Shown here one piece after another: positions 3,996-36,841 of a DNA stretch of 41,870 nt; position 1 is the stretch's first letter, and each line of letters begins with the position of its first letter. The stretch comes from Oscillospiraceae bacterium (GTDB lineage: Bacteria; Bacillota; Clostridia; Oscillospirales; CAG-272). The position numbers and the translations under genes were made by a program. The stretch is from positions 1 through 41,870 of the forward strand of contig SVRH01000002.1 of the NCBI GenBank assembly GCA_015064925.1, written 5' to 3'. The notes under the pieces are model-generated. The model did not search any database, had not been told where the DNA came from, and saw only the letters and a list, made by a program, of their open reading frames with translations.

Positions 3996-4907
3996 TTACG
4001 ATCTTTCGCCTATCTTTGTCGTTATCATTATTCCGGTAGCAAATTCTTCACCAACTTCTGTTTTCAAATTCACTCCAAGACTCGTAACTATGCATACATC
4101 TCCATTGAACATAGCATACAGCTTTTGCTGCATGATGTCATAGCCTATAATTTGATACGACGAATTTTCATATGCATTGGTTACTGCCAAATCAATGCTT
4201 TTATCCAAAGATTCCTTATCAATCTTCAAATCAGCATCAGAAAACACGTCGATGTCCCCTGCACTCACGAAAAATACAGTACCTTTTGAATTGATTCCGA
4301 CAGTAACCTTATCCATAGTCTCATAGCCGGCTACTTTTTTAATAAAATCAATCGTGTAACGAGTCAAATAATAGGTTTTTCCATCCTTTTCTCTGTCCGT
4401 AGTGGAAGACTTTGTAACCATTTCATATTCATCAATATCATCCACATACGTTTGCGCGATCTCTTTTGCCAACTCTTCTGCATGTTTTTGAGGCTCTTTC
4501 ACATCATCCAAATAATAATCCCTATTCAACAATTGCGGTGTTGACAAGCTAAATCCATCTAACTCATCCGTATCACATCTAAAATAGAATTCTCTACCCA
4601 GTGCATCTTGATAGCAATCGAACATATAAGAGTTACGTCCGCTTCTTGTTTCCTGATATACGCCGACATAGTCTTCACCAAAAATAGTTACCTTACGATC
4701 CTTCATATTCTCTTTCACGATCGTTTCGTCCTGCCACTCAGTTGTTGTCACATAATCCCCGGATAAAACACCGTCATTTGCCACATCGGTTACGTAGCTT
4801 TCATACTCTTCCAAAAGAGTAACTGTTTTTTTCTCAGAGCCACAGGCAAACAGCATCATTACACTTGCCAATGCTAACAAATTTGCTGTTATTTTAATCA
4901 TTTTCAT
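3996..4907 (-). CDS. lipoprotein of unknown function (low-GC islet)
   Basis: ORF 3996..4961 trimmed to the ATG at 4905-4907, with GGAGG 8 nt upstream. MKMIKITANLLALASVMMLFAC-GSEKK gives a signal peptide plus lipobox Cys. I recognise no domain. GC is 22/60 in the 4381-4440 sample. Confidence 0.75.
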   Translation of the reverse strand: MKMIKITANLLALASVMMLFACGSEKKTVTLLEEYESYVTDVANDGVLSGDYVTTTEWQDETIVKENMKDRKVTIFGEDYVGVYQETRSGRNSYMFDCYQDALGREFYFRCDTDELDGFSLSTPQLLNRDYYLDDVKEPQKHAEELAKEIAQTYVDDIDEYEMVTKSSTTDREKDGKTYYLTRYTIDFIKKVAGYETMDKVTVGINSKGTVFFVSAGDIDVFSDADLKIDKESLDKSIDLAVTNAYENSSYQIIGYDIMQQKLYAMFNGDVCIVTSLGVNLKTEVGEEFATGIMITTKIGERS

Positions 4908-4923
4908 AATAATAACCTCCGTC

Positions 4924-5991
4924 TTATCTAATTTTAAAATTACGGTTTCCTGCGATTTCAATTAACGTAGACATATCGTGGTCATACTTGCTTTTATTGC
5001 TAGTAAAATCAATCTCTTCAATCGCATCTTCAATAGAGCATCCATTTACAATCATAAATGTCATCAAATCTTGCGCCAATTGATTACAATCCGGTATATA
5101 AGTTACATTATTAAAACCAACCACTGTTCCCGCTCCGCAAAGCACCATTTGCTCAATAATATTTTGCGGATTATTATTTGTAATATGTGACAAGCTATAG
5201 TCTTGCCCTGTATTGCAAGTTAAAAGGAGTGCAAATTTAAGATTACTTAAATCACTGCCGGAAATTTCACTCATTGATAACGGGTTTGAAGATGAAAGAT
5301 AAAAACCGGTTTTTACACCATGTGTATGCACAACAAACACATCGTATGTTGACATAGTATCTATCATTGTATTCTCCGAAGACGATGAATAAAAACTTTC
5401 ATGCACATTAATATCGTCAAAATATTGATCCACTAATGTATGAACCGGTTCAAAATACGCATTTCTTGCTTTTTTGTTCTCATCTAATGCCATTAATGCA
5501 ATACTATCAAAAAGGGGAACAGTATGACAAATATCCCACTCATCCTGATAGCTGTTATTACCGTCTTGGAAGTCGCTGAGTTTGAGATTGCTGCCGGCTG
5601 TGGCACTTGCGGTGCTTGTGCAAAGCACCATGGTCGGATCGGAATAGGAAACGATCTTATAGCCTTGATTGGTCTTTTCCACCTTCCACTTCATGCCGTT
5701 TGTAGGGGTACCCGTGCGCAAAACAATGGGCGTTTCATCTGCGGTGGAATCGTTTTGAACACCGAGATAATACGAGTTGTTCTTCGTTGAACGGATGGTA
5801 TACACGTTGCTTCCGATGTGCGTAAATATCCATTTCTGCGTGTTTGCTCCGTCAAAGGTCTGCTGTTCTGCCGCAATTCCGCTTGACATCGTGCCACCCT
5901 CAATATCGGCATACATTCCATTCTGCAGGTTCCGCAGGAAATAGGTACCGTCCTCGATCATTTTGAAGGTGACGTTCATGGAGGCCGACAA
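4924..5991 (-). CDS. ricin-type beta-trefoil lectin domain fused to a caspase-like (clan CD-like His/Cys) domain; 5' end doubtful
   Basis: N-terminal part has three Q/E-x-W repeats (TQKWIF, GMKWKV, QDEWDI) typical of ricin B lectins. C-terminal part has DVFVVHTHG ... FALLLTCNTG ... CGAGTVVGF, a strand-His-Gly / strand-Cys / GA..V.G pattern like caspase, gingipain and CHAT folds. The track start is a TTG with no SD. There is no signal peptide. Confidence 0.6.
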   Translation of the reverse strand: MSASMNVTFKMIEDGTYFLRNLQNGMYADIEGGTMSSGIAAEQQTFDGANTQKWIFTHIGSNVYTIRSTKNNSYYLGVQNDSTADETPIVLRTGTPTNGMKWKVEKTNQGYKIVSYSDPTMVLCTSTASATAGSNLKLSDFQDGNNSYQDEWDICHTVPLFDSIALMALDENKKARNAYFEPVHTLVDQYFDDINVHESFYSSSSENTMIDTMSTYDVFVVHTHGVKTGFYLSSSNPLSMSEISGSDLSNLKFALLLTCNTGQDYSLSHITNNNPQNIIEQMVLCGAGTVVGFNNVTYIPDCNQLAQDLMTFMIVNGCSIEDAIEEIDFTSNKSKYDHDMSTLIEIAGNRNFKIR

Positions 5992-6049
5992 CTGCGTCCC
6001 GGAAATATTGACCGTAACGGTTACAGTCCCGCACTAGTGTATTCGTAAC

Positions 6050-6094
6050 AAGCAAAAATCGCCCATGCGTGCCCTTTTGGGGTACTGCATGGGC
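6050..6094 (-). terminator. terminator-like hairpin directly downstream of an orphan promoter
   Basis: Minus strand reads GCCCATGC-AGTACCCCAAAAGGGCAC-GCATGGGC followed by GATTTTTGCTTG. It lies between the promoter at 6113-6141 and the lectin ORF. Confidence 0.45.
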
Positions 6095-6112
6095 ACTTGC
6101 CTTTACGATACA

Positions 6113-6141
6113 AGTATAACAGTATTTTTCGCCTCTGTCAA
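6113..6141 (-). promoter_or_regulatory. sigma-A-type promoter (extended -10)
   Basis: Minus strand reads TTGACA (6136-6141), a 17-nt spacer, then TGT-TATACT (-10 at 6113-6118). Confidence 0.5.
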
Positions 6142-6227
6142 TGCGGGTTTGCACTCACATTGTTACATTTTTGTGAACAAAAAGCATTTTTGTAGCACTG
6201 CACAAAAAGAGAGGGACTCTTTTGTGC

Positions 6228-6258
6228 AAAACAGAAAAGGAACCGCAAAGCGGTTCCC
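6228..6258 (-). terminator. rho-independent terminator of asd
   Basis: GGAACCGC-TTT-GCGGTTCC stem (6239-6257), followed on the minus strand by TTTTCTGTTTT. A second hairpin, GCACAAAAGAG..CTCTTTTTGTGC, follows at 6199-6227. Confidence 0.8.
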
Positions 6259-6264
6259 TTTTCA

Positions 6265-7269
6265 TTATTTTTCGATCAGCAGCTCTGCGATCTGTACGCA
6301 GTTGGTGGCAGCACCCTTGCGGATCTGGTCACCGCAGCAGAACAGAGTCAGACCGTTCTTTTCGGTCAGGTCGCGGCGGATTCTGCCGACATAAACAGTG
6401 TCGATGTCACTGGTGTCAAGCGGCATGGGATAGACCTGCTTCGAAGGCTCATCCACCAGCTTTACGCCAAGACCGTTTTCAATCGCCTTCTGCGCATCCT
6501 CCACGCTGATATAATCCTCGGTCACGAAGGTGGCGGAGATGGAGTGGCTGCGAAGCACGGGCACTCGCACGCAGGTGCAGGTGACCTTCAGTTCGGGCAG
6601 GTGCATGATCTTTCTGCCCTCGTTTTGCAGCTTCATTTCCTCGGAGGTATATCCGTTGTCCTTGGTTCCGCCGATGGCAGGAATCAGGTTGAAGGCGATC
6701 TGATGCGCAAACACCTTATTCTCGGTCATGGTGCCGTTCACGTGTGCTTCCACCTGCTCCTCCAGCTCGCGAAGGCCTCCTACGCCGGCGCCCGAAACCG
6801 CCTGATAGGTGGAGGCGACCAGCTTCTTGATGGGAGAAAGCTTGTTGATGGGATTCAGCGCTACCAGAGTGATGATGGTGGAGCAGTTGGGGTTACTGAT
6901 GATGCCGTTGTGCTTCTTGGCGTCCTCGGGGTTGATCTCGGGAACCACCAGCGGCACGTCGTCGCGCAGACGGAACGCGCTGGAGTTGTCTACGAACACC
7001 GCGCCCGCCTTCTTGATGGCGGGAGCAAAGCGCTCTGCGATATCGTTCTCGGCAGCACCCAGCACGATATCAAGACCCTCAAAGGCATCTTCTCTTGCTT
7101 CTGCAACGGTTACTTCCTTACCGCAAAAAGGCAGGGTCTTGCCCACAGAACGGGCGCTGGCAAGCAGACGCAGCTGCCCCACGGGGAAGTTTCTTTCTTC
7201 CAGAATTTTCAGCATTTCACGACCCACGGCACCGGTGGCACCGAGGATACCTACGTTGTATGTCTTCAT
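6265..7269 (-). CDS. asd: aspartate-semialdehyde dehydrogenase
   Basis: 334 aa: MKTYNVGILGATGAVGREML (NAD-binding GxxGxxG) and the active-site motif ISNPNCSTI. Confidence 0.95.
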   Translation of the reverse strand: MKTYNVGILGATGAVGREMLKILEERNFPVGQLRLLASARSVGKTLPFCGKEVTVAEAREDAFEGLDIVLGAAENDIAERFAPAIKKAGAVFVDNSSAFRLRDDVPLVVPEINPEDAKKHNGIISNPNCSTIITLVALNPINKLSPIKKLVASTYQAVSGAGVGGLRELEEQVEAHVNGTMTENKVFAHQIAFNLIPAIGGTKDNGYTSEEMKLQNEGRKIMHLPELKVTCTCVRVPVLRSHSISATFVTEDYISVEDAQKAIENGLGVKLVDEPSKQVYPMPLDTSDIDTVYVGRIRRDLTEKNGLTLFCCGDQIRKGAATNCVQIAELLIEK

Positions 7270-7321: not shown

Positions 7322-8479
7322 TCAGTCTGCCCAGCCGGCAAAGAAGGTGGTTTCATCCGCTTCCTGCATGGTTTTTGCATGGCTGTGCATTTCAAGAACG
7401 CCCATGGGCTTGGTGATGTACATGCCGTTTCCAAGACGAACCTCGATCTCGATCGCCTGCGGAATCTGCGCACTCGTGCGCAGATAGTAACGGTGCTTGG
7501 CACCTCTTGCATCCACATTTAGATTGTTTTCGCAGGAAACCTGATCGAAGGGGGAGTAGCCGTGCAGAATGTCGATGGCATCCAGATATACGTTCACAGC
7601 GGTGGTCTTTCTGCCCGCACCGAAGCCGCCGAACCCGTGCTTGCCGGTACGCTCGCCGATATAGTAAATGTAGTTTTCCACGCCGTATACGGAATATTCA
7701 TTCTGTCCGGGACCGACCAGAGTGGGCTCGCAGAAGGCACAAACGCTGCCGTCCTCCAGACGCACGCCCTTGCCGATCAGTCTTACGCGAAGCCCGTGGG
7801 CACGGAACACGTCGATGTCCTTCTTCTGAATATGACGAACGCCCATGGTGGGGATATCGTCGGGATGGCACGCTGCGTCAAAGCCTACGCTGCAGCACAG
7901 CGCCAGCTTGCAACGAAGGTCAATGGCGTCAATATCTGCAGAGGGGTTGGACTCGGCATAGCCAAGCGCCTGCGCCTTTTTCAGCGTTTCGGCAAAATCG
8001 GCACCTTTCGACTGCATTTCGTCCAAAATGAAGTTGGTGGTACCGTTCATGATACCGCCTACCTCCAGAACGGTGTCCGCATGGGAAACCAGCGCCAGAT
8101 TCTTAAGGAAGGGAATGCCACCGCCAACCGTTGCGGAAAATGCCACCGAAACACCCTTTTCTCTGGCGGCGCGCATGATCTCGCTGTAGTTTTGAGCCAA
8201 CATCAGCTTATTGGCGGTGATCAGATTTTTACCCGCCAGCACCGCCGCAATGGCAAAGGTGTGTGCAGGCTCAAAGCCGCCCAGCACCTCGATCACGGTA
8301 TCGATGGTGGGGTCAGCCAGAATTTCGTCTACGTTTTCGCTTCGGATCTCTTTGATCTCGGGAATATCGCGGCGCTCCAGCACGCTTTCCACCGTGATAT
8401 TGTGACGCATTTCGTCGCGCAGAAGGAACTCATATATTCCGCTGCCGACCACGCCGTATCCAAACAATCCTACTTTCAT
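7322..8479 (-). CDS. hom: homoserine dehydrogenase
   Basis: 385 aa: MKVGLFGYGVVGSG..., ..ITANK.., GIMNGTTNFILDEM, LGYAESNPSADIDAIDLRCKL. These motifs are typical of Hom. Adjacent to asd. Confidence 0.9.
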   Translation of the reverse strand: MKVGLFGYGVVGSGIYEFLLRDEMRHNITVESVLERRDIPEIKEIRSENVDEILADPTIDTVIEVLGGFEPAHTFAIAAVLAGKNLITANKLMLAQNYSEIMRAAREKGVSVAFSATVGGGIPFLKNLALVSHADTVLEVGGIMNGTTNFILDEMQSKGADFAETLKKAQALGYAESNPSADIDAIDLRCKLALCCSVGFDAACHPDDIPTMGVRHIQKKDIDVFRAHGLRVRLIGKGVRLEDGSVCAFCEPTLVGPGQNEYSVYGVENYIYYIGERTGKHGFGGFGAGRKTTAVNVYLDAIDILHGYSPFDQVSCENNLNVDARGAKHRYYLRTSAQIPQAIEIEVRLGNGMYITKPMGVLEMHSHAKTMQEADETTFFAGWAD

Positions 8480-8539
8480 ATCGTAATACTCTCCTTTTTT
8501 CGAGGGAGAAGTCCTCTCAATTTATAAACAATTGTAATC

Positions 8540-8568
8540 ACTATATCACATTTTCACGCAAAATGCAA
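8540..8568 (-). promoter_or_regulatory. sigma-A-type promoter upstream of hom
   Basis: Minus strand reads TTGCAT (8563-8568), a 17-nt spacer, then TGA-TATAGT (-10 at 8540-8545). Confidence 0.45.
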
Positions 8569-8611
8569 GTAATATTCGACAGTTTCTTGAAAAATCGCAT
8601 TGTTTTTTGCA

Positions 8612-8640
8612 TAAAAAATGGGCGGTAACCGATACCGCCC
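8612..8640 (-). terminator. rho-independent terminator of the small lipoprotein gene
   Basis: GGGCGGTA-TCGGT-TACCGCCC stem (8620-8640), followed on the minus strand by ATTTTTTAT. Confidence 0.75.
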
Positions 8641-8650
8641 AAATTCTTTC

Positions 8651-8947
8651 TCATTTGTAAGGGATAAACTCGCCGTAGTTGCCGCCGTCGGTGTCTTCGC
8701 CAACCGTCAGCTTGCCCTCGTCGGTTTCATCGCCGCCCTGGCTACCTTCGTCGCCCTGGCTACCTTCGCCGCTCTGGCTTCCTTCGCCGCTCTGGCTGCC
8801 TTCACCGCCGTCGGGCGTATCTTCTCCGGTGTCACCGGTTCCTGTTTGTTCCTTGTCTTCATCGTTCTGCTTTTTATCACCGCCGCAAGCAACAAAGCAA
8901 AGCGTCAAGAGAAGCAGTGCAAGCAAAACAGCAATCAGTTTTTTCAT
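8651..8947 (-). CDS. small acidic lipoprotein with GEGSQS-type repeats
   Basis: MKKLIAVLLALLLLTLCFVAC-GGDKK gives a lipobox. GGAGG lies 8 nt upstream. The mature part is Gly/Glu/Asp/Ser-rich with tandem repeats. Confidence 0.7.
   Translation of the reverse strand: MKKLIAVLLALLLLTLCFVACGGDKKQNDEDKEQTGTGDTGEDTPDGGEGSQSGEGSQSGEGSQGDEGSQGGDETDEGKLTVGEDTDGGNYGEFIPYK
8739..8810. repeat. 4 x 18-bp tandem repeat (encodes GEGSQS/GDEGSQ)
   Basis: tggctaccttcgtcgccc / tggctaccttcgccgctc / tggcttccttcgccgctc / tggctgccttcaccgccg. Confidence 0.85.
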
Positions 8948-9115
8948 GGGTCATATACCTCCGTAAACGGTTATTTTTTATCATTATATCATACGAAACC
9001 GCATTTGTAAAGTTCTTTTCGGCAAATTTCCGCCATCAATTAGTAAAATTCTTTTACAAATTCCATTTTCCATAAATCGCTCATGGAATATTTCCAAATT
9101 ATTCACAAATAGCTC

Positions 9116-9144
9116 TTTACACGGAGGCTTTTTTGTGGTATACT
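9116..9144 (+). promoter_or_regulatory. sigma-A-type promoter (extended -10)
   Basis: TTTACA (9116-9121), a 17-nt spacer, then TGG-TATACT (-10 at 9139-9144). Sits 34 nt before the ATG at 9178. Confidence 0.55.
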
Positions 9145-9177
9145 ACTTGTATGTTTACTGCAAAGGAGATAAATACA

Positions 9178-10653
9178 ATGAAAAAACTATGCGCATTTCT
9201 GTTGGCTGCCCTGTCGGCTCTGTCGCTGGCATCCTGCGGAAGCGGTTACTCTAAGGACGAAGTTGCCAAATACATCGACGTAACCGACTACAAGACTGCT
9301 CTTGTAACCAAAGCCGAATATGACAAGGAGTACAAGACCCAGTATGATTCCGTAAAGGACAGCTACTGCACCCCTGTGGAAGTAGAAAAGGAGACCCAGA
9401 TCAAGGACGGTCTGGTTGTCAACGCAACCTACGAAACCCTTCTCACCGTTAAGAAGGAAGAGGGCGTTACCATTAAGGTTGGCGAAAACACTCTGGTAAA
9501 CGGCGACCGCAAGGACGACGCCAGCACCTCCACCGCTGCCAAGACCTTTGACAGCAGCCTCATCGGCAAGGGCGTTTCCGAAAAGGACAAGCCCCTGGAA
9601 ATCACCTACACCTATTCCTCTGTTTACGCAAAGGACCCCGACGATAAGTATCTGCAGAACAAGCAGGTCACCGTCACCGTCACCGTGATCGATATCAACG
9701 GCAAGACCGACAAGGATACCAAGATCAAGGAAGGCGACTCTGTAAAGCTCGACTACGTGATCACCCTGAAGCTCACCGACTATTCCGGCACCAAGAAGGA
9801 CATCACCGTTGGTGAGACCAAGCTGGGCGATCTGATCTCCATCGACGACACCCTCAAGACCATCACCGTTCCCGGTACTCCCAAGAAGACCGACAGCTCC
9901 TCCTCTTCTTCCTCTTCCTCCACCACTACCACCACTGTGGACTACAAGAAGGAATTCAAGAAGGAAGACGTGAAGCTGGAAGGCGACAAGCTGGATAAGT
10001 TCCTTGCCGGCAAGAACGTGACCGTTTCCGGTACCGTTCACTCCGTAAAGGAAAAGCCCGCCTTCACCGATGCACTGGTCAAGGAAAAGTCCAGCGGCAC
10101 CTACAACACCATCGCTGAGCTGGAAGATGCTGTGATGGACTCCGTTGTGGTAAACCTGGCTCTGGAAAATCTCGTCGACAAGTCTAAGGTTAAGAAGAAT
10201 CTGCCCAAGAGCGACGTGACCAAGGAATACGATGCACTGGAAGCTTCCGCAAAGAATATGTACGCCATGGTCAACCAGGCAGCCTGCCTGACCAGCGAAG
10301 AGCTGGCTTCCTTCGTATATCAGTACGGCCCCTACTATCTGGGTGTTTCTCCTGCCGGCTCCACCGTGCAGGCAATGTGCAACGCATTCGCCGCTGCCGC
10401 TGCCAGCACCGTAAAGGAAAAGATGGTTCTTTACTACGTGGCTGATGCTGAGGGAATGAAGGTCACCGACAAGGAATACAAGGCATATCTGAAGGAGCAG
10501 GCTTCCATTCAGGGCGTTTCCTCCGGTGAGTACGAGGATGCATACGGCGAGGACTCCATCCGCGAGACCATGCTGTTCACCGAAGTTTCCGACTACCTCT
10601 GCGAACTGATCAAGGGTCAGCTTTCTCTGACAAACAAAAGCGATAAGAAATAA
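9178..10653 (+). CDS. lipoprotein, weakly trigger-factor/PPIase-chaperone-like, with poly-Ser/Thr linker
   Basis: ORF 9133..10653 trimmed to MKKLCAFLLAALSALSLASC-GSG (AAGGAG upstream; lipobox). Contains a KIKEGDSVKLDYV segment, a SSSSSSSSSTTTTT linker and a helical C-terminal part resembling the trigger-factor C-terminal region. The product call is tentative. Confidence 0.6.
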   Translation: MKKLCAFLLAALSALSLASCGSGYSKDEVAKYIDVTDYKTALVTKAEYDKEYKTQYDSVKDSYCTPVEVEKETQIKDGLVVNATYETLLTVKKEEGVTIKVGENTLVNGDRKDDASTSTAAKTFDSSLIGKGVSEKDKPLEITYTYSSVYAKDPDDKYLQNKQVTVTVTVIDINGKTDKDTKIKEGDSVKLDYVITLKLTDYSGTKKDITVGETKLGDLISIDDTLKTITVPGTPKKTDSSSSSSSSSTTTTTVDYKKEFKKEDVKLEGDKLDKFLAGKNVTVSGTVHSVKEKPAFTDALVKEKSSGTYNTIAELEDAVMDSVVVNLALENLVDKSKVKKNLPKSDVTKEYDALEASAKNMYAMVNQAACLTSEELASFVYQYGPYYLGVSPAGSTVQAMCNAFAAAAASTVKEKMVLYYVADAEGMKVTDKEYKAYLKEQASIQGVSSGEYEDAYGEDSIRETMLFTEVSDYLCELIKGQLSLTNKSDKK

Positions 10654-15073: not shown

Positions 15074-15619
15074 ATGAAAGCAACCGGAATTGTGAGAAGA
15101 ATCGATGACCTTGGACGTGTTGTCATTCCGAAGGAAATCAGAAGAACGATGAGGATCCGCGAGGGGGATCCGCTGGAGATCTATACCGACCGTGAGGGCG
15201 AGGTCATTTTCAAGAAATATTCCCCCATCGGTGAGCTAAACACCTTTGCTGGGCAGTATGCCGAAACCCTTTATAAGACCTGTGATCTGTCGGTGATCAT
15301 CTGCGACCGCGACACCGTCATCGCCTGCGCTGGTGTACCCAAGCGCGATTTTCAGGACAAGCGTATCTCCGCCGAGACCGAGTCGGTCATTGACGGACGC
15401 ACCGTCTATCGCTCAAACGGTACAAGCCCCTTTTCGCCAATCACGGATAACACGGAATACGCAGTGGCATGCATGATGCCCATACTCGCGGAAGGCGACG
15501 TCATTGGATGCGTTGCCAACCTCCTGCCGGCAGAAGGCACCCGTCTCACCCCCACCGAGATCGAATGTAAGCTGGTGGAAAGCGCAGCGGGATTTCTCGG
15601 GCGTCAGCTGGAGCCCTAA
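15074..15619 (+). CDS. spoVT: stage V sporulation protein T (AbrB-fold N-domain plus GAF-like C-domain)
   Basis: 181 aa: MKATGIVRRIDDLGRVVIPKEIRRTMRIREGDPLEIYTDREGEVIFKKYSP..., with a C-terminal domain of the right length. Confidence 0.92.
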   Translation: MKATGIVRRIDDLGRVVIPKEIRRTMRIREGDPLEIYTDREGEVIFKKYSPIGELNTFAGQYAETLYKTCDLSVIICDRDTVIACAGVPKRDFQDKRISAETESVIDGRTVYRSNGTSPFSPITDNTEYAVACMMPILAEGDVIGCVANLLPAEGTRLTPTEIECKLVESAAGFLGRQLEP

Positions 15620-15630
15620 CAGATCAAAAG

Positions 15631-15664
15631 CAAAAGAGAGCCTTTGTTGAAAGGCTCTCTTTTC
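15631..15664. terminator. bidirectional terminator shared by spoVT and the micro-ORF operon
   Basis: 13-bp stem AAAGAGAGCCTTT-gttg-AAAGGCTCTCTTT (15633-15662), with A/T runs on both sides. Confidence 0.85.
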
Positions 15665-15670
15665 AAGTCA

Positions 15671-15781
15671 TTACCACTGGATGCTGGGTATATCCTCCTC
15701 GTCGCCGGGGCTCAAGGTCAGAATATCTTCCTTAGCAAACACTTCAACAGTTACTTCGGGCATTTCAAAAAACTTCTTCAT
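15671..15781 (-). CDS. unannotated 36-aa micro-ORF, paralog of 34753..34866
   Basis: My reverse-complement translation gives MKKFFEMPEVTVEVFAKEDILTLSPGDEEDIPSIQW*. GAGGAGGA lies about 9 nt upstream. The ORF starts 27 nt after the stop of 15809..17650. It has a conserved paralog with only synonymous changes in the core. Confidence 0.8.
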   Translation of the reverse strand: MKKFFEMPEVTVEVFAKEDILTLSPGDEEDIPSIQW

Positions 15782-15808
15782 GGGTATCAATCCTCCTCTT
15801 GCTCAAAA

Positions 15809-17650
15809 TCAGTTATTGATGATGTTGCCGTTTTCGTAGACAACAGTTACTGTCTTTCCGTATACGGTCACACCTCCGCCGGTGACAGCGGTGGGTGTTA
15901 CTTCAAATGTAAATCTTCCCTCAGTGGGAACACCTGTGATCGCATATCCGAACAGGTACGAAAAATCTTCGATCAAATGTGCGCCTGTTTCCTCGGAAAC
16001 CGAGCCAACAGTAGTGACAACAGGCTTCATTGTGCCGTTCACTGCACCTCTGAAGGTTTTGTAAACGCTTGTAGCCGCCTTGCTATAGGTCTTATCGGTT
16101 TCTACCACGTGCACAGAAAAGTCGACGTTTTTGTACTCCAGATCGGAAACGCCACCGATGAAACGGATACCGTTATCGCCCTTCTGTTCGCCAACGAGCT
16201 TGATCAGGTTATCGAAGGTTGCTTCGTTATCGTCTGCCCAGGTCTTAATGGTAGCAGATTCATAGCTCTTGATTACAAGGCCTTCGGGAAGAACATACTC
16301 TTCGGTATCTTCCACAAAACAATACAAGAAAGTTTCGCCATAGTCTTCGGTGATCTCAAGATCGGGGGACATGACTGTCAAAGTTTTCAAATTCACACAC
16401 TCGGAAATTGCAAGCTCATGAACAGTTTTCACAGATTCCGGAATGCGAATGTCTGTAACGGTGCTGTTTTCATAGAATACACCATAATATTCATATCGCT
16501 TACCGACCTTCTTTTCTTCGCCGTACAGAGAAACAACGGTATATTCTTTACCGTCAGTACCGATAGTGCCGTCGCCACGGATGGTGGAGGGAATGGTAAC
16601 TTCAGACGCAGATCCGGTATAAAGGATCAGCTCTGCAGTGGCAGCCTCTTCGTCAAGAACCGCCCATTCGTAGGGAAGAACGGTGGAAACAGTGCCGGCC
16701 ACATATTCTTTAACAAACAGCGGAACGGTTTCGGTGGCATCCTCACCGTATGCCTTAAAAGGATCGCTGCCAAAAGGAGTTACAACAAAGGTATCGTCGT
16801 CATCCAGAGGAGTCACAACGGTAAACACCAGTTCAAAGATCCGGAAGTCATCGGTAGGTGCTACTGCATTTTCAAAGCCACCTGCAAAGCCGAGGCTAAA
16901 GGATCTTGCCACGGGGAGCACCGTAACATAAGACTCATTATTGCCCTTGATAGCAAATTCCTTGCTGGCATAGGGATCGATCTCTACCTTATCGGCTGCT
17001 GTTCCGCTTATCGAGAAGGAAAGCTGCGTACAGGAAGCAAGCTTACCGTTGCTGGCGCTGATCATCACAGGCACGCGAATGGTCTTATCACCCACATAAG
17101 CCACAGTGTCGGCCACGCTGACGGTCACGGGATCATAGCGGGTAACATACAGCTTTGCACCCTCGAAGGACACATTTCCGCTGGCGGAGGTGCCGTCTTC
17201 CCAACGCAGAACTTCACTAAAATCTGCGGATACAGAAAGAGACAAATCGTAGACATCTCCGTCCTTGGCGTCCTCGGGAATAGTCACTTTGATGGTAAAA
17301 TACGTTTCGGGGGTGAAGCTTCCCACTCCACACGCAAAACTGAACGAACCATTATCGTTTACAACGCCTGCGCCGCCCCCCTCAGGCATAGGGGTTGCGG
17401 AAATGGCAGTGGTTTGGTTTATCGCTGCTTCGCCGGCAGATATAGTCGCCTGGAACTGCTGAATATTCTTTCCGTTTGTGTTCTTAAAGCCGACCTTTAC
17501 AGCAACCGTTTCACCGGGCTTGCCGTACACGTCCTCCATGACGTAGATCGTCGGCGTAGTATCCTCTGCGGTAGCTGTCAGCGCCGTTGCGGGCACGCAG
17601 GCAAGCACCATCAGAAGAGTTAGCACAAATGAGAGTATGCGTTTTCTCAT
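15809..17650 (-). CDS. secreted multidomain surface protein (cohesin-like modules plus BspA-type LRR region plus C-terminal domain shared with 34887..36770)
   Basis: MRKRILSFVLTLLMVLACVPATALTATA-EDT is a signal peptide. IYVMEDVYGKPGETVAVKVGFKN..FQATIS and VTVSVADTVAYVGDKTIRVPVMISA look cohesin-like. EVTIPSTI..IRIPESVKTVHELAISECVNLKTLTV looks like LRR_5. Domain names are tentative. Confidence 0.75.
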   Translation of the reverse strand: MRKRILSFVLTLLMVLACVPATALTATAEDTTPTIYVMEDVYGKPGETVAVKVGFKNTNGKNIQQFQATISAGEAAINQTTAISATPMPEGGGAGVVNDNGSFSFACGVGSFTPETYFTIKVTIPEDAKDGDVYDLSLSVSADFSEVLRWEDGTSASGNVSFEGAKLYVTRYDPVTVSVADTVAYVGDKTIRVPVMISASNGKLASCTQLSFSISGTAADKVEIDPYASKEFAIKGNNESYVTVLPVARSFSLGFAGGFENAVAPTDDFRIFELVFTVVTPLDDDDTFVVTPFGSDPFKAYGEDATETVPLFVKEYVAGTVSTVLPYEWAVLDEEAATAELILYTGSASEVTIPSTIRGDGTIGTDGKEYTVVSLYGEEKKVGKRYEYYGVFYENSTVTDIRIPESVKTVHELAISECVNLKTLTVMSPDLEITEDYGETFLYCFVEDTEEYVLPEGLVIKSYESATIKTWADDNEATFDNLIKLVGEQKGDNGIRFIGGVSDLEYKNVDFSVHVVETDKTYSKAATSVYKTFRGAVNGTMKPVVTTVGSVSEETGAHLIEDFSYLFGYAITGVPTEGRFTFEVTPTAVTGGGVTVYGKTVTVVYENGNIINN

Positions 17651-17703: not shown

Positions 17704-17732
17704 ATTATATCACGCGAAATTTGCCGTGTCAA
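17704..17732 (-). promoter_or_regulatory. consensus sigma-A promoter of the surface-protein/micro-ORF unit
   Basis: Minus strand reads TTGACA (17727-17732), a 17-nt spacer, then TGA-TATAAT (-10 at 17704-17709). Confidence 0.65.
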
Positions 17733-33882: not shown

Positions 33883-34134
33883 TTTGTTTTGCCTCCTTTT
33901 ATATTTTGGGGCGTGGGAACCGCTCTACGACCGCATTTTCTCAATACACTTTCCCGTGTGTTTCACGGTGCTTCCTTAAGAAAACCGAATTTCGGGGCAT
34001 GGGTTCACTGCTACGAAATCCGGGTCGAATGGATAGGTTCATTCTTTGTTCGCCCGTTCTACGGACATACTCCACGAAAATTCCCTGCGGCACTGCGCAG
34101 CAACCTTTCGCTTCATCGCACATCAAGCCTTGCC

Positions 34135-34422: not shown

Positions 34423-34671
34423 ATGAAATCTACCGGTATCGTTCGCCCCATTGACCAACTCGGCAGAGTCGTACTGCCCAAGGAACTGCGTGAAAACCTC
34501 GGCATCAGCCCCAAGGACAGTCTGGAGGTTTTCGTTGAAAACGAAAAGATCATCCTCAAGAAGTACGCCCCCAACTGCTGCTTCTGCGGCAACGACGAGG
34601 ATATGAACCTTTATCAGGGCAAGCTGATCTGCAAGGCGTGCATCCGCAAGCTCGCAGCCCTCGCTGAATAA
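34423..34671 (+). CDS. abrB: AbrB-family transition-state regulator (clostridial type with Cys-rich C-terminus)
   Basis: MKSTGIVRPIDQLGRVVLPKELRENLGISPKDSLEVFVENEKIILKKYAPNCCFCGN...KLICKACIRKL. GGAGAGG RBS. Confidence 0.9.
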   Translation: MKSTGIVRPIDQLGRVVLPKELRENLGISPKDSLEVFVENEKIILKKYAPNCCFCGNDEDMNLYQGKLICKACIRKLAALAE

Positions 34672-34710: not shown

Positions 34711-34748
34711 AAACAAAAAGCAGACGGATTTTCCGTCTGCTTTTGTTT
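34711..34748 (-). terminator. rho-independent terminator of the F5/8-protein/micro-ORF unit
   Basis: GCAGACGG-aaaat-CCGTCTGC stem (34720-34740), followed on the minus strand by TTTTTGTTTG. Sits 5 nt after the micro-ORF stop. Confidence 0.8.
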
Positions 34749-34752
34749 TTAA

Positions 34753-34866
34753 TTACCACCCGATCTCGGGGATATTCGTAGAGTCTCCGGGGCTCAGTGT
34801 CAGAATGTCCGCTTCCTCAAAAAGAGTTACGTTTACTTCAGGAGCTTCAAATACTTTCTTTTCCAT
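34753..34866 (-). CDS. unannotated 37-aa micro-ORF, paralog of 15671..15781
   Basis: My reverse-complement translation gives MEKKVFEAPEVNVTLFEEADILTLSPGDSTNIPEIGW*. AAAGGAGA lies 8 nt upstream. The ORF starts 20 nt after the stop of 34887..36770. Confidence 0.8.
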   Translation of the reverse strand: MEKKVFEAPEVNVTLFEEADILTLSPGDSTNIPEIGW

Positions 34867-34886: not shown

Positions 34887-36770
34887 TCAACCCTGCACGA
34901 ACATCTGCCACTCAGAGAACTGAACCACGTCCAGCCCCACGCCATCCTTGCCGTTGTTGGAAAGGACCGCCAGTTTATAGTAGCCGTATGCGGTGGTGTT
35001 TTCAAATTCGTAGGTGTACAGCATATTTCTGGCGGGCATATCCTCGTCGGTACGCTTATCCAGCTCTACCCAGTTTTCGCCGTCGGTGGAGCCGTAGAGG
35101 ATCCAGTCCTTAGGGTCTCTGGGATCGTGGTCGTTGGCAGAACCGATCTTGTACATATTGACAGCTGCAGCCTCTTCCAGCTGTACGGAAACCCACAGAG
35201 AGGTCACGTGTGCAACGCATGCCTTGGTGCCGAGATCGCCGTCGAACAGCTTGGCAAGACCTTCGCCGCCCTCAACGGCAGCGTCGCCTGCCACGGTTGC
35301 GGTATTCACGGCAACCTTGTTTTCCTTGGGTGCTTCTGCGCTGGAAACGAACAGCTGCCATTCGGAGAACTGAACCACGTCCATCCCCACGCCGTCCTTG
35401 CCGTTGTTGGAGGTAACAGCCAGCTTGTAGTAGCCGTATGCGGTGGTGTTTTCGAAGTTATAGGTGTACAGCGTGTTTCTTGCGGGCAGATCTTCGTTGG
35501 TGCGCTTGTCCAGCTCTACCCAGTTTTCGCCGTCGGTGGAGCCGTAGAGGATCCAGTCCTTAGGGTCTCTGGGATCGTGGTCGTTGGCAGAACCGATCTT
35601 ATAAGTATTGACCGCAGTGGGCTTCTTCAGCTGAACGGAAACCCACAGAGAGGTCACGTTGACGATGCAAGCCTTGGAGCCGAGCTCGTTGTCAAACAGC
35701 TTGCCAACGCCCTGGCTACCGTCCACAGCCGCGTCGCTCTGAATGGTGGATGCGTCCACTTCAACCTGTGTTTCCACGATGTCGGAGGGAACGTCCAGCG
35801 CAAACAGCTGCAGCTCCTGGAGCTGGAGAATGTCATTGTCCCAAGGGTCGATGCCGAAGTTTGCATCGATTACCAGCTTGTAGAACTGATATGCGGTAGC
35901 GTTGTCAAGGGTGTAAACATAAGTGCCGTTTCTTTCAGCAAAGGGAGCTTCGTTGCTCTGAGTATCCAGAACTGCCCATTCGTTGCCGTCAGCGGAACCA
36001 TACAGAGTCCAGCTCTTGGGGTCACGTACAGGCTGGTCTTCGCCGCTGATCATAACGTATTCAACAAGGGTTTCAGCCTGATCCAGTTCCCAAGCGATTT
36101 CCAGAGGTCTGGTGTCGAATTCGCACATCTTTTCGCTGAGGCTGTTATCGAAGATCTTTGCAATCTTGGAAAGGTCACCGTTGGTGGTGATCTTGTTCGC
36201 CTTTACGTATACCTGCTTGGTAGCAACAGGTTCGGGATCAACGGGAGGCTCGGGATCAACGGGAGGCTCGGGATCAACGGGGGGTTCGGGCTCAACGTAC
36301 TTTTCGGCGGTTACAACGCCGTCCTCGACGCTGACGCTCAGCTTGGCAGCCTCGCCGGTCAGGGTTTCTTCACCGTTTACTGCCACGGGGGTCACTTCAA
36401 ACACGTATTCGCCATCGGTGATGCCAACAAGGGCAAAGCCGTACAGATAATCGTGTTCCACAACGATTGCGTCACCTTGTGCTTCCTTGGTGGTGGCAAC
36501 TGCCTCTTCACCACTGAACAGGGTGTTGAACACCTTGGTGGTGCTGAAGCTCTTTTCCTTGGTCGCGTCACCGGTGACGGTCAAGGTAAAACCAATGGAG
36601 TCATACGAAAGATTGTCGGTGTAGCCGATCAGTCTCAGCGCACGTTCTCCCTCTTGCATACCTGCAAAGCCGAAATCGACGGTCGTTTCCTCTGCGGAAG
36701 CCACAAACGCAGCGGGCAGCAGGGACAGAACCATCAAAACGGCAAGTACAAGTGTAATGGATCTTCTCAT
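34887..36770 (-). CDS. secreted protein with N-terminal domain shared with 15809..17650, PEPPVD linker and three F5/8 type C (discoidin/CBM32-like) domains
   Basis: MRRSITLVLAVLMVLSLLPAAFVASA-EET is a signal peptide. Three repeats follow the pattern ..KLFDN/G.LG.K.C..........W..V.L......N.Y.I.SANDHDPRDPKDWILYGS.DGENWVELD.., typical of discoidin domains. Confidence 0.8.
   Translation of the reverse strand: MRRSITLVLAVLMVLSLLPAAFVASAEETTVDFGFAGMQEGERALRLIGYTDNLSYDSIGFTLTVTGDATKEKSFSTTKVFNTLFSGEEAVATTKEAQGDAIVVEHDYLYGFALVGITDGEYVFEVTPVAVNGEETLTGEAAKLSVSVEDGVVTAEKYVEPEPPVDPEPPVDPEPPVDPEPVATKQVYVKANKITTNGDLSKIAKIFDNSLSEKMCEFDTRPLEIAWELDQAETLVEYVMISGEDQPVRDPKSWTLYGSADGNEWAVLDTQSNEAPFAERNGTYVYTLDNATAYQFYKLVIDANFGIDPWDNDILQLQELQLFALDVPSDIVETQVEVDASTIQSDAAVDGSQGVGKLFDNELGSKACIVNVTSLWVSVQLKKPTAVNTYKIGSANDHDPRDPKDWILYGSTDGENWVELDKRTNEDLPARNTLYTYNFENTTAYGYYKLAVTSNNGKDGVGMDVVQFSEWQLFVSSAEAPKENKVAVNTATVAGDAAVEGGEGLAKLFDGDLGTKACVAHVTSLWVSVQLEEAAAVNMYKIGSANDHDPRDPKDWILYGSTDGENWVELDKRTDEDMPARNMLYTYEFENTTAYGYYKLAVLSNNGKDGVGLDVVQFSEWQMFVQG
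34901..35800. repeat. tandem duplication, 2 x about 450 bp (second and third discoidin domains)
   Basis: 34901.. aligns with 35351.. at offset 450. 35061-35150 is identical to 35511-35600 (90 bp). The flanks are more diverged. Confidence 0.85.
36228..36299. repeat. 4 x 18-bp tandem repeat encoding the (PEPPVD)n linker
   Basis: aggYtcgggatcaacggg three times, plus one degenerate copy. Confidence 0.85.
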
Positions 36771-36812: not shown

Positions 36813-36841
36813 ATACTAACACGATTTTTCCTATTTGTAAA
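36813..36841 (-). promoter_or_regulatory. possible sigma-A promoter of the F5/8-protein unit
   Basis: Minus strand reads TTTACA (36836-36841), a 17-nt spacer, then TGT-TAGTAT (-10 at 36813-36818). Confidence 0.4.

Follow-up and report, generated by a model that had tools for sequence, protein, structure and literature searches.

A conserved family of short acidic, tryptophan-terminated peptides encoded next to secreted proteins that share a common domain in gut Oscillospiraceae

Background

Among the described bacterial peptides, the closest counterparts of the family analyzed here include the pheromones of Bacillales PalX and ComX (acting with PalQ and ComQ, respectively), which combine a conserved N-terminal region with a Trp located at (PalX) or near (ComX) the C-terminus. 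In PalX, the conserved C-terminal Trp is the prenylation site, and its position exactly at the C-terminus is essential; the precursor contains an NHLP-type leader of about 70 residues and is encoded beside a prenyltransferase and a histidine kinase (PMC10853753). Here we describe a gene of 36 codons on the minus strand of contig SVRH01000002.1 from an Oscillospiraceae bacterium (positions 15671-15781 of the window, that is, the entire 41.8 kb stretch that was analyzed), the product of which has Trp as its last residue, as do 65 of its 67 relatives. The gene follows one for a secreted protein, and the upstream proteins at the related loci have in common a segment of about 125 residues, for which we coin the label A2. 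Compared to PalX and ComX, this family has a leader-like part of only 24 residues, with no NHLP, Pfam or NCBIfam match, and the constant neighbor, in the window and at the related loci, is an A2 protein, with no ComQ/PalQ prenyltransferase or ComP/PalP kinase nearby.

Lasso peptide precursors come close in another respect, their leaders carrying a YxxPxL motif at positions -17 to -12 and a Thr at -2 (PMC10368454). The peptides of the present family start with MKK, contain an aromatic-x-x-P-x-aliphatic motif (FEMPEV, or YExPxL in distant relatives) and are of similar total length; with a cut between L23 and S24, T22 would occupy position -2 and the invariant FxxPxV positions -19 to -14. However, only 26 of the 67 relatives have the Asp or Glu that the macrolactam requires at core positions 7-9, and there are no lasso B (B1/B2) or C genes in the window or among the called genes of more than 10 related loci. 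Microviridin cores end in ...YPSDWEEW, and several of the longer tails in the family end similarly (IPSSDWNEW, IPTTEWDQW; P0040, P0045, P0048, P0052, P0054, P0057 and P0059), but this resemblance to graspetides is limited to 11 of the 67 tails, and the TxK motif, the PFFARFL leader and an ATP-grasp gene are all missing. For a double-glycine leader, the hydrophobic and acidic residues at positions -4, -7, -8, -12 and -15 would fit a cut after P25-G26, but G26 is found in only 29 of the 54 tails of 12 residues, position -2 is Pro, and no C39/ABC gene lies nearby. The SHP/ComS (Rgg) and Phr/PapR (RNPP) peptides are poor models as well, given a net charge of about -6, no hydrophobic segment and no recurrent regulator. 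The remark in the earlier note, made from the sequence alone, that the peptide fits none of the SCIFF, AgrD, ComX, Phr, SHP and streptide patterns is borne out.

Two further comparisons concern gene organization and structure. Like toxin-immunity pairs of the barnase-barstar kind, the locus encodes a small acidic, cytoplasmic protein behind a secreted multi-domain one, in a 1:1 ratio and in tandem cassettes; unlike in those pairs, A2 is constant, does not form a C-terminal tip and lacks a catalytic signature, and the peptide is far smaller, with an N-terminal half more conserved than the partner domain. Donor strands of the chaperone-usher pathway and the split domains SpyTag/SpyCatcher are strand-complementation systems, and here, too, a short strand-prone peptide goes with a surface-protein domain, a predicted beta-sandwich, of a Gram-positive bacterium. 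The differences are that hhalign finds no similarity between the peptide and A2, that the peptide has no export signal, and that no isopeptide Lys/Asp/Asn triad was identified.

A conserved gene for a short acidic peptide

The gene under study (peptide gene 1) belongs to a compact module (module 1) with the following features:

15671..15781, minus strand: peptide gene 1, MKKFFEMPEVTVEVFAKEDILTLSPGDEEDIPSIQW, 36 amino acids (aa) plus TAA
15791..15798, minus strand: Shine-Dalgarno (SD) sequence GAGGAGGA of peptide gene 1, 9 nucleotides (nt) from the ATG
15809..17650, minus strand: gene for a 613-aa protein that carries a Sec-type signal peptide, modules resembling cohesin and LRR_5 (both sub-threshold) and A2 at its C-terminus
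15812..16210, minus strand: A2 domain of the 613-aa protein (residues ~481-613), predicted all-beta, with no Pfam or PDB relative
15632..15663, minus strand: intrinsic terminator (hairpin and T-run); it separates the peptide gene from the 3' end of spoVT, which is convergent
17704..17732, minus strand: promoter-like site, TTGACA, 17 nt, TG-TATAAT (12/12 sigma-70 match, extended -10)

The minus strand of 15671-15781 reads ATG AAG AAG TTT TTT GAA ATG CCC ... CAG TGG TAA, and the reading and translation given in the earlier note are correct. So are its statements that an SD sequence lies about 9 nt upstream, that the ATG is 27 nt from the TGA (15811-15809) of the 613-aa gene, that the ORF (open reading frame) is translatable and part of the operon of the upstream gene, and that the product is acidic and Trp-terminated, without Cys or a signal peptide (net charge of -6, no Cys and no hydrophobic signal segment). 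The distance of 8 nt between the ORF end and the terminator holds for a 13-bp stem; with all 14 pairs of the stem included, it is 7 nt past the TAA. Because a perfect sigma-70 consensus lies upstream and the terminator follows the ORF, the 613-aa gene and the small ORF constitute one transcription unit running from the promoter-like site to the terminator. With the terminator set aside, RNA of the peptide gene 1 stretch folds no better than shuffled sequences (z = -1.6), and no Rfam family was found at this gene.

ORFs of 36 codons are frequent by chance (the ORF listing includes 82 ORFs of at least 25 aa within 8 kb), and therefore the case for a gene rests on conservation, not on length. An exhaustive phmmer search of 1.84 billion cluster representatives identified five relatives of 36-37 aa, and a profile search of 5.8 billion proteins yielded 67 strong matches (expectation (E) values of 1e-9 to 1e-20) of 36-41 aa, apart from one 63-aa miscall. 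All 67 relatives come from metagenomes or metagenome-assembled genomes (MAGs), and none has a name. The earlier note called the ORF unannotated, which is true of its own ORF track, whereas in public assemblies it is already called, as a hypothetical protein of 36 aa. Neither Pfam (at E up to 1) nor NCBIfam (at E up to 10) gives a match to the peptide, and a full-text literature search for the DILTLS motif found no paper.

All 67 distinct sequences share F5, E6, P8, F15, D19, L21, T22, L23 and S24, and K2, K3, E9, V12 and I20 are near-invariant, so that the N-terminal 24 residues follow a nearly invariant pattern, M(E)KKxFExPEvxVxxFEExDILTLS. The tail after DILTLS comprises 12 residues in 54 of the 67 relatives, with the consensus PGESGN[IFV]P[ES]I[PQK]W, and 15 residues in 11, where an additional x-x-W stands behind the first W. 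None of the relatives contains Cys, and the net charge is typically -6. The ratios of nonsynonymous to synonymous substitution rates (dN/dS, Nei-Gojobori) for orthologous and paralogous genes are in the range of 0.04 to 0.24, with dS from 0.2 to greater than 2 and saturated between orthologues. The SD sequence, the ATG, the TAA and a terminator 5-8 nt past the stop are kept at every locus compared; 14-27 nt separate the upstream stop from the ATG, and there is one terminator only, past the peptide gene.

The homologous ORF is thus preserved in relatives, which was the check proposed in the earlier note; the outcome favors a real gene, and lack of conservation does not count against it. The alternative of a chance ORF in a 3' untranslated region, to which the frequency of such lengths lends the only plausibility, is refuted by 67 same-length relatives, 9 invariant residues, the dN/dS values and the conserved SD, start and stop, and can be considered negligible. 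We conclude that the 36-codon ORF is a genuine protein-coding gene of an unnamed family of acidic, Cys-free peptides of 36-41 aa.

In an AlphaFold model of the peptide alone, the chain is extended, with a predicted local distance difference test (pLDDT) score of 80-84 over residues 1-20; extended models of this kind are typical of segments that fold upon binding. The N-terminal half includes two strand-prone stretches, EVTVEVF and DILTLS.

At one locus (L110), the tandem peptide paralogues at 4160-4273 and 7001-7114 are almost identical over the N-terminal 25 codons (dS 0.21, dN 0.035), whereas their tails are strongly diverged (dS 1.34, dN 0.94), which could mean that the N-terminal half has undergone gene conversion or that the tail is diversifying. 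Separately, peptide ORF 1 is in frame with the 613-aa gene, the two being separated by TGA TTT TGA GCA AGA GGA GGA TTG ATA CCC (15782-15811, minus strand); the shared frame looks coincidental because the second copy in the window is out of frame. The TGATTT(T)GA motif past the stop codon recurs in several loci.

The peptide genes are paired with the A2 domain

The description of the upstream gene as cohesin/LRR in the earlier note holds to the extent that such matches exist, but both are below the Pfam cut-offs (Cohesin, 17.7 bits against 24.1; LRR_5, 18.6 bits against 27.7). What the 613-aa protein has in common with the upstream proteins of the other loci (315 aa in L019; 509 aa, with F5/8C, in L021; 878 and 818 aa in L110; at least 412 aa in L029) is the A2 segment. 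Pairwise BLAST E-values for this segment among the upstream proteins range from 1e-9 to 1e-16, and an A2 profile matches both proteins of the window (win1, win2) and those of L019, L021, L029, L110 (L110a and L110b) and L112 with E-values of 1e-28 to 1e-59. These proteins differ in every other module (cohesin-like, LRR_5, F5/8C) and in the position of A2, which is C-terminal in most, N-terminal in a 627-aa protein of the window and in L029d, and internal (546-677) in L110b. The invariant residues of A2 are G, Q, R, V, Y, L and G. There is no Pfam match common to the members and no sequence relative in the PDB, and no LPXTG, SLH or transmembrane anchor is detectable in A2 proteins by Pfam. A profile search started from a 4-sequence A2 alignment returned a single protein.

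From the peptide side, the association is clear. At all loci but one, core-family peptide genes are located behind a gene for a Sec-exported multi-module A2 protein, and the link holds across at least nine different architectures. In L110, two tandem A2 genes are each accompanied by a 37-aa peptide gene of their own, and in L029 the order is A2 gene, peptide gene, A2 gene. Even two divergent relatives conform: P0081 (L025) is encoded behind a protein with a C-terminal A2 (A2 E-value 2e-6, and 3e-6 in BLAST against the 613-aa protein), and the protein encoded ahead of the UBA6330 peptide (L116) likewise has a C-terminal A2 (E = 1e-7). The genes around the modules otherwise differ between loci, so it is the A2 gene alone that travels with the peptide gene. 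The small-protein gene is the last gene of a two-gene operon and is strictly associated with A2.

The window itself contains exactly two A2 genes and exactly two peptide genes, and the two modules flank the S10-spc-alpha block of ribosomal protein genes. Peptide gene 2, a paralogue found by a motif scan, encodes a product identical to the database protein P0020; an AGGAG sequence is located at 34880-34876, and the ATG lies 20 nt past the stop of the upstream gene. The features of module 2 are:

34753..34866, minus strand: peptide gene 2, MEKKVFEAPEVNVTLFEEADILTLSPGDSTNIPEIGW, 37 aa plus TAA
34887..36770, minus strand: gene for the 627-aa protein, which has a Sec signal peptide, A2 at the N-terminus, a linker (PEPPV) and discoidin (F5/8 type C) modules
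36303..36680, minus strand: A2 domain of the 627-aa protein (residues ~31-156)
36813..36841, minus strand: weak promoter-like site (9/12 match, with TG)
34716..34744, minus strand: terminator hairpin directly after peptide gene 2, minus-strand reading aaaagcagacggaaaatccgtctgctttttgttt (listed on the plus strand by the scan)

Two loci provide additional context for A2. Upstream of the gene for the 315-aa protein of L019 (2932-3879; cohesin-like module and A2), the gene at 1-2814 ends in a duplicated dockerin-type motif (DMNLDGVVDMKD ... DGIVDMKD), which suggests a cellulosome-like context with A2 in place of an anchoring module. In L025, a CBM9-like paralogue (5187-6272) adjoins the A2-bearing CBM9-like protein and contains, at the position of its neighbor's A2, a linker rich in Pro and Thr, a membrane-spanning segment and a basic tail, a hint that A2 may stand in for a membrane anchor.

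Genomic neighborhood, host and distribution

In the 41.8 kb window, we found no radical-SAM, ATP-grasp, lanthipeptide, lasso B/C, prenyltransferase, C39-ABC exporter, histidine kinase or Rgg/RNPP gene, and none of these families, which represent the machinery of pheromones and of RiPPs (peptides made by ribosomes and modified after translation), recurs among the called genes of more than 10 related loci. The annotation of the window and of these loci thus agrees with the earlier observation that no maturase or transporter is adjacent.

Both peptide modules of the window converge on a gene of the AbrB family, encoding SpoVT (181 aa, 15074-15619, plus strand) and an AbrB-like protein (82 aa, 34423-34671, plus strand), respectively, with hairpins shared or adjacent between the modules and these genes. 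The spoVT neighbor is kept at the orthologous locus L112, whereas AbrB-type neighbors are absent in L019, L021, L029 and L110; a gene of the GerE type follows only in L019/L020. Given that other loci lack an AbrB-family neighbor, we treat this proximity as local, and a link of the peptide to AbrB/SpoVT, which could take the form of an AbbA-like acidic antagonist, is suggested only in this genome and in L112 and was not adopted.

The RpoA protein of the host, an uncultured member of the Oscillospiraceae from animal guts, is 96% identical to that of the Oscillospiraceae MAG SIG655; next come Clostridia MAGs from the guts of deer, goat, sheep, rabbit, chicken and human. Among 80 related species identified via RpoA, neither the peptide nor A2 was found in any within about 6 kb of rplQ. 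L030, the closest relative at species level (86% nucleotide identity across the ribosomal block), has behind rplQ a gene (7535-9322) for a 48%-identical orthologue of the 613-aa protein; past the LRR region, this orthologue has a part with Cys-rich repeats in place of A2, and it is cut off by the end of the contig. Protein-pattern scans of GTDB species genomes found no copies, DNA-pattern scans of 185,579 GTDB species genomes only 5 distant copies in 4 MAGs, and a scan of metagenomes 4 contigs; pattern scans of viral contigs and plasmids found none. The peptide-A2 module is rare and confined to a narrow lineage.

Two other observations pertain to the window alone. The only Rfam family in it is the S10-Clostridia ribosomal protein leader (RF03136, 42.9 bits) at 34050-34125 on the minus strand. 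Two minus-strand ORFs, 3996-4961 and 4924-5991, overlap by 38 nt; the upstream one (355 aa, 4924-5991) encodes ricin-type beta-trefoil lectin domains, and the other (321 aa) has no Pfam match.

Possible functions of the peptide

We tentatively favor, with a confidence that falls somewhat short of even, the possibility that the peptide is a dedicated partner or ligand of A2. The strongest support available for this reading is that the pairing outlasts domain shuffling, change of the neighborhood and tandem duplication. There would be one peptide per A2 domain, acting as a 1:1 partner or ligand; its N-terminal half (EVTVEVF, DILTLS) would dock on the A2 beta-sandwich as added strands, and the acidic tail with its hydrophobic-x-Trp-COOH end could provide a second contact. 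Strand addition to a beta-sandwich seems to be the natural mode of binding because residues 1-20 are modelled as extended and include the two strand-prone stretches. Since the peptide has no export signal, the default site of contact is the cytoplasm, either ahead of A2 protein export or while it is under way, and there the peptide might serve as a private holder or masking factor; in a sub-variant, contact would occur outside the cell after non-classical export of the peptide. The suggestion of the earlier note that the ORF encodes a small partner of the upstream secreted protein hence gains genomic support from the A2 link across architectures, while the function itself is what we infer from it. 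One structural shortcut was rejected: MAFFT aligned KxFEMPEVxV of the peptide with YVFEVTPxAV, as if the peptide were a homologue of the last two A2 strands, but hhalign with the 67-sequence profile gave a probability of 0.04, so this is an alignment artefact.

Several observations weigh against such a partnership, and some of them bear on the second reading, the main rival, namely that the peptide is an exported leader-plus-tail precursor, pheromone or RiPP-like, matured in trans, which we regard as possible but doubtful. The A2 proteins have Sec signal peptides, whereas the peptide has none, a conflict of topology. The single orphan seen is a core-family peptide on a short contig (MEKKVFESPEVIVTVFEEADILTLSLGNEGEFNDDNTVSW; L026, 423-564), the 423 nt upstream of which contain no same-strand ORF. 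In distant relatives, the N-terminal motif, MKKxYExP...DILTLS, is retained with unrelated acidic tails that often contain a Trp near the end, and A2 is not detectable in the large secreted proteins encoded beside them (L113, L114, L117, L022/23, L115/L024); in L114, there are two tandem pairs of a distant relative and a large secreted protein. The mean identity of the N-terminal 23 residues of the peptide is 74%, compared to 38% for the adjacent A2, suggesting that this half contacts something that evolves slower than A2, and the identity of the tails does not correlate with that of A2 (r = 0.08, 28 pairs). Finally, the all-beta AlphaFold2 model of A2, built from 3 sequences, is of low confidence (pLDDT 51), and a Foldseek search of the PDB with this low-confidence model returned only generic Ig-like matches (E > 0.1). 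Conservation of the N-terminal half beyond that of A2, the uncoupling of tail and A2, and the unrelated tails of the distant relatives all favor an exported peptide. Under that scenario, the 24-residue N-terminal half would be, at the same modest level of credence, a leader for conserved export and processing machinery encoded elsewhere, from which a tail of about 12 residues is released; the C-terminal Trp might be modified, for example, prenylated as in PalX/ComX, and co-transcription with A2 would tie signal output to expression of the surface protein, unless A2 is the receptor of the tail. An invariant N-terminal half, twice as conserved as A2, combined with a variable tail is the expected layout, and the contrast is sharp between the two L110 paralogues (dN of 0.035 against 0.94); Trp remains the last residue in nearly all relatives, even in tails 3 residues longer. 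Precedents are the prenylated C-terminal Trp of PalX (PMC10853753) and the lasso-type leader signature YxxPxL...T(-2), which FxxPxV...T-L, with the cut before S24, resembles (PMC10368454). However, clustered machinery is completely missing from the window and from more than 10 loci. Genes for RiPP or pheromone peptides are almost always clustered with their machinery. Moreover, the tail is not hypervariable but has a clear consensus, and the strict pairing with A2 is not explained by export alone. Thus, of the other proposal in the earlier note, a signalling or RiPP-like precursor matured in trans, the leader, tail and Trp fit, whereas an enzyme, exporter or sensor gene that would recur across the loci does not turn up.

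Two further explanations are weaker. The peptide could be an antidote-like inhibitor that neutralizes a harmful or active A2 in the producer before export, as a small acidic gene product without a signal peptide encoded directly behind a secreted multi-domain protein, with 1:1 pairing kept in tandem cassettes and fast divergence of the tails between paralogues, would suggest. We consider this improbable: A2 can be N-terminal or internal and so is not a C-terminal toxin tip, its invariant residues look structural rather than catalytic, and its constancy while the partner modules vary is the reverse of the situation in polymorphic toxins. The other modules are binding modules of the adhesin or scaffoldin type, with a dockerin-like motif encoded in one neighboring gene; immunity proteins are usually far larger than 36 aa, and the N-terminal half is too conserved for a co-diversifying antidote. 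Alternatively, translation itself could matter, with the ribosome at the TAA modulating termination, 3'-end stability or read-through into the AbrB-family gene, or with the product acting as an arrest peptide. At all loci, 5-8 nt separate the stop codon from the terminator stem, a chain of 36 aa would just fill the ribosomal exit tunnel at termination, and a convergent spoVT or abrB gene faces both copies in the window. Nevertheless, this explanation seems very unlikely given that the operon ends with this ORF and has no downstream gene to regulate, that the AbrB-type neighbors are missing from four of the loci (see above), that tails of 12, 13, 15 or 16 aa shift the invariant block relative to the peptidyl-transferase center, and that purifying selection acts at the amino acid level over the whole length.

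A more far-reaching variant of the partner reading, to which we assign only a small chance, is that the peptide and A2 form a tag-and-catcher system that holds surface proteins on the cell: the peptide would be exported non-classically and fixed in the envelope by lipidation of the Trp, as in PalX/ComX, or otherwise, with its N-terminal strands capturing the A2 of scaffoldin- or adhesin-like proteins. Export of the peptide by hitch-hiking through the Tat pathway was considered and dropped, the signal peptides of the A2 proteins being ordinary Sec-type ones with no consistent twin-arginine motif.

Significance

No part of bacterial genomes is charted as poorly as the proteins of fewer than 50 aa, and here is one under strong purifying selection and in strict pairing with a domain, likewise undescribed, that secreted proteins of adhesin- or scaffoldin-like type carry in uncultured Oscillospiraceae of the gut. 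As judged from the searches described above, Pfam, NCBIfam and PDB contain neither the peptide family nor A2, and the gene pair matches no named family. A small peptide gene coupled to a surface-protein gene and a leader-plus-tail layout are of a known kind, and a categorically new system would require that the tag-and-catcher anchoring holds, which, if true, would amount to a new principle of non-covalent anchoring in Gram-positive gut bacteria. If the peptide binds A2, the two would represent a new peptide-domain recognition pair, with possible use as a tagging tool, and could explain how surface proteins without an anchor are handled or held. If, instead, it is an exported, Trp-terminated signal, it would define a new class of peptides with unclustered machinery, a blind spot for genome mining based on clustering. 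Either way, the gene pair provides a testable handle on two 'hypothetical' families at once.

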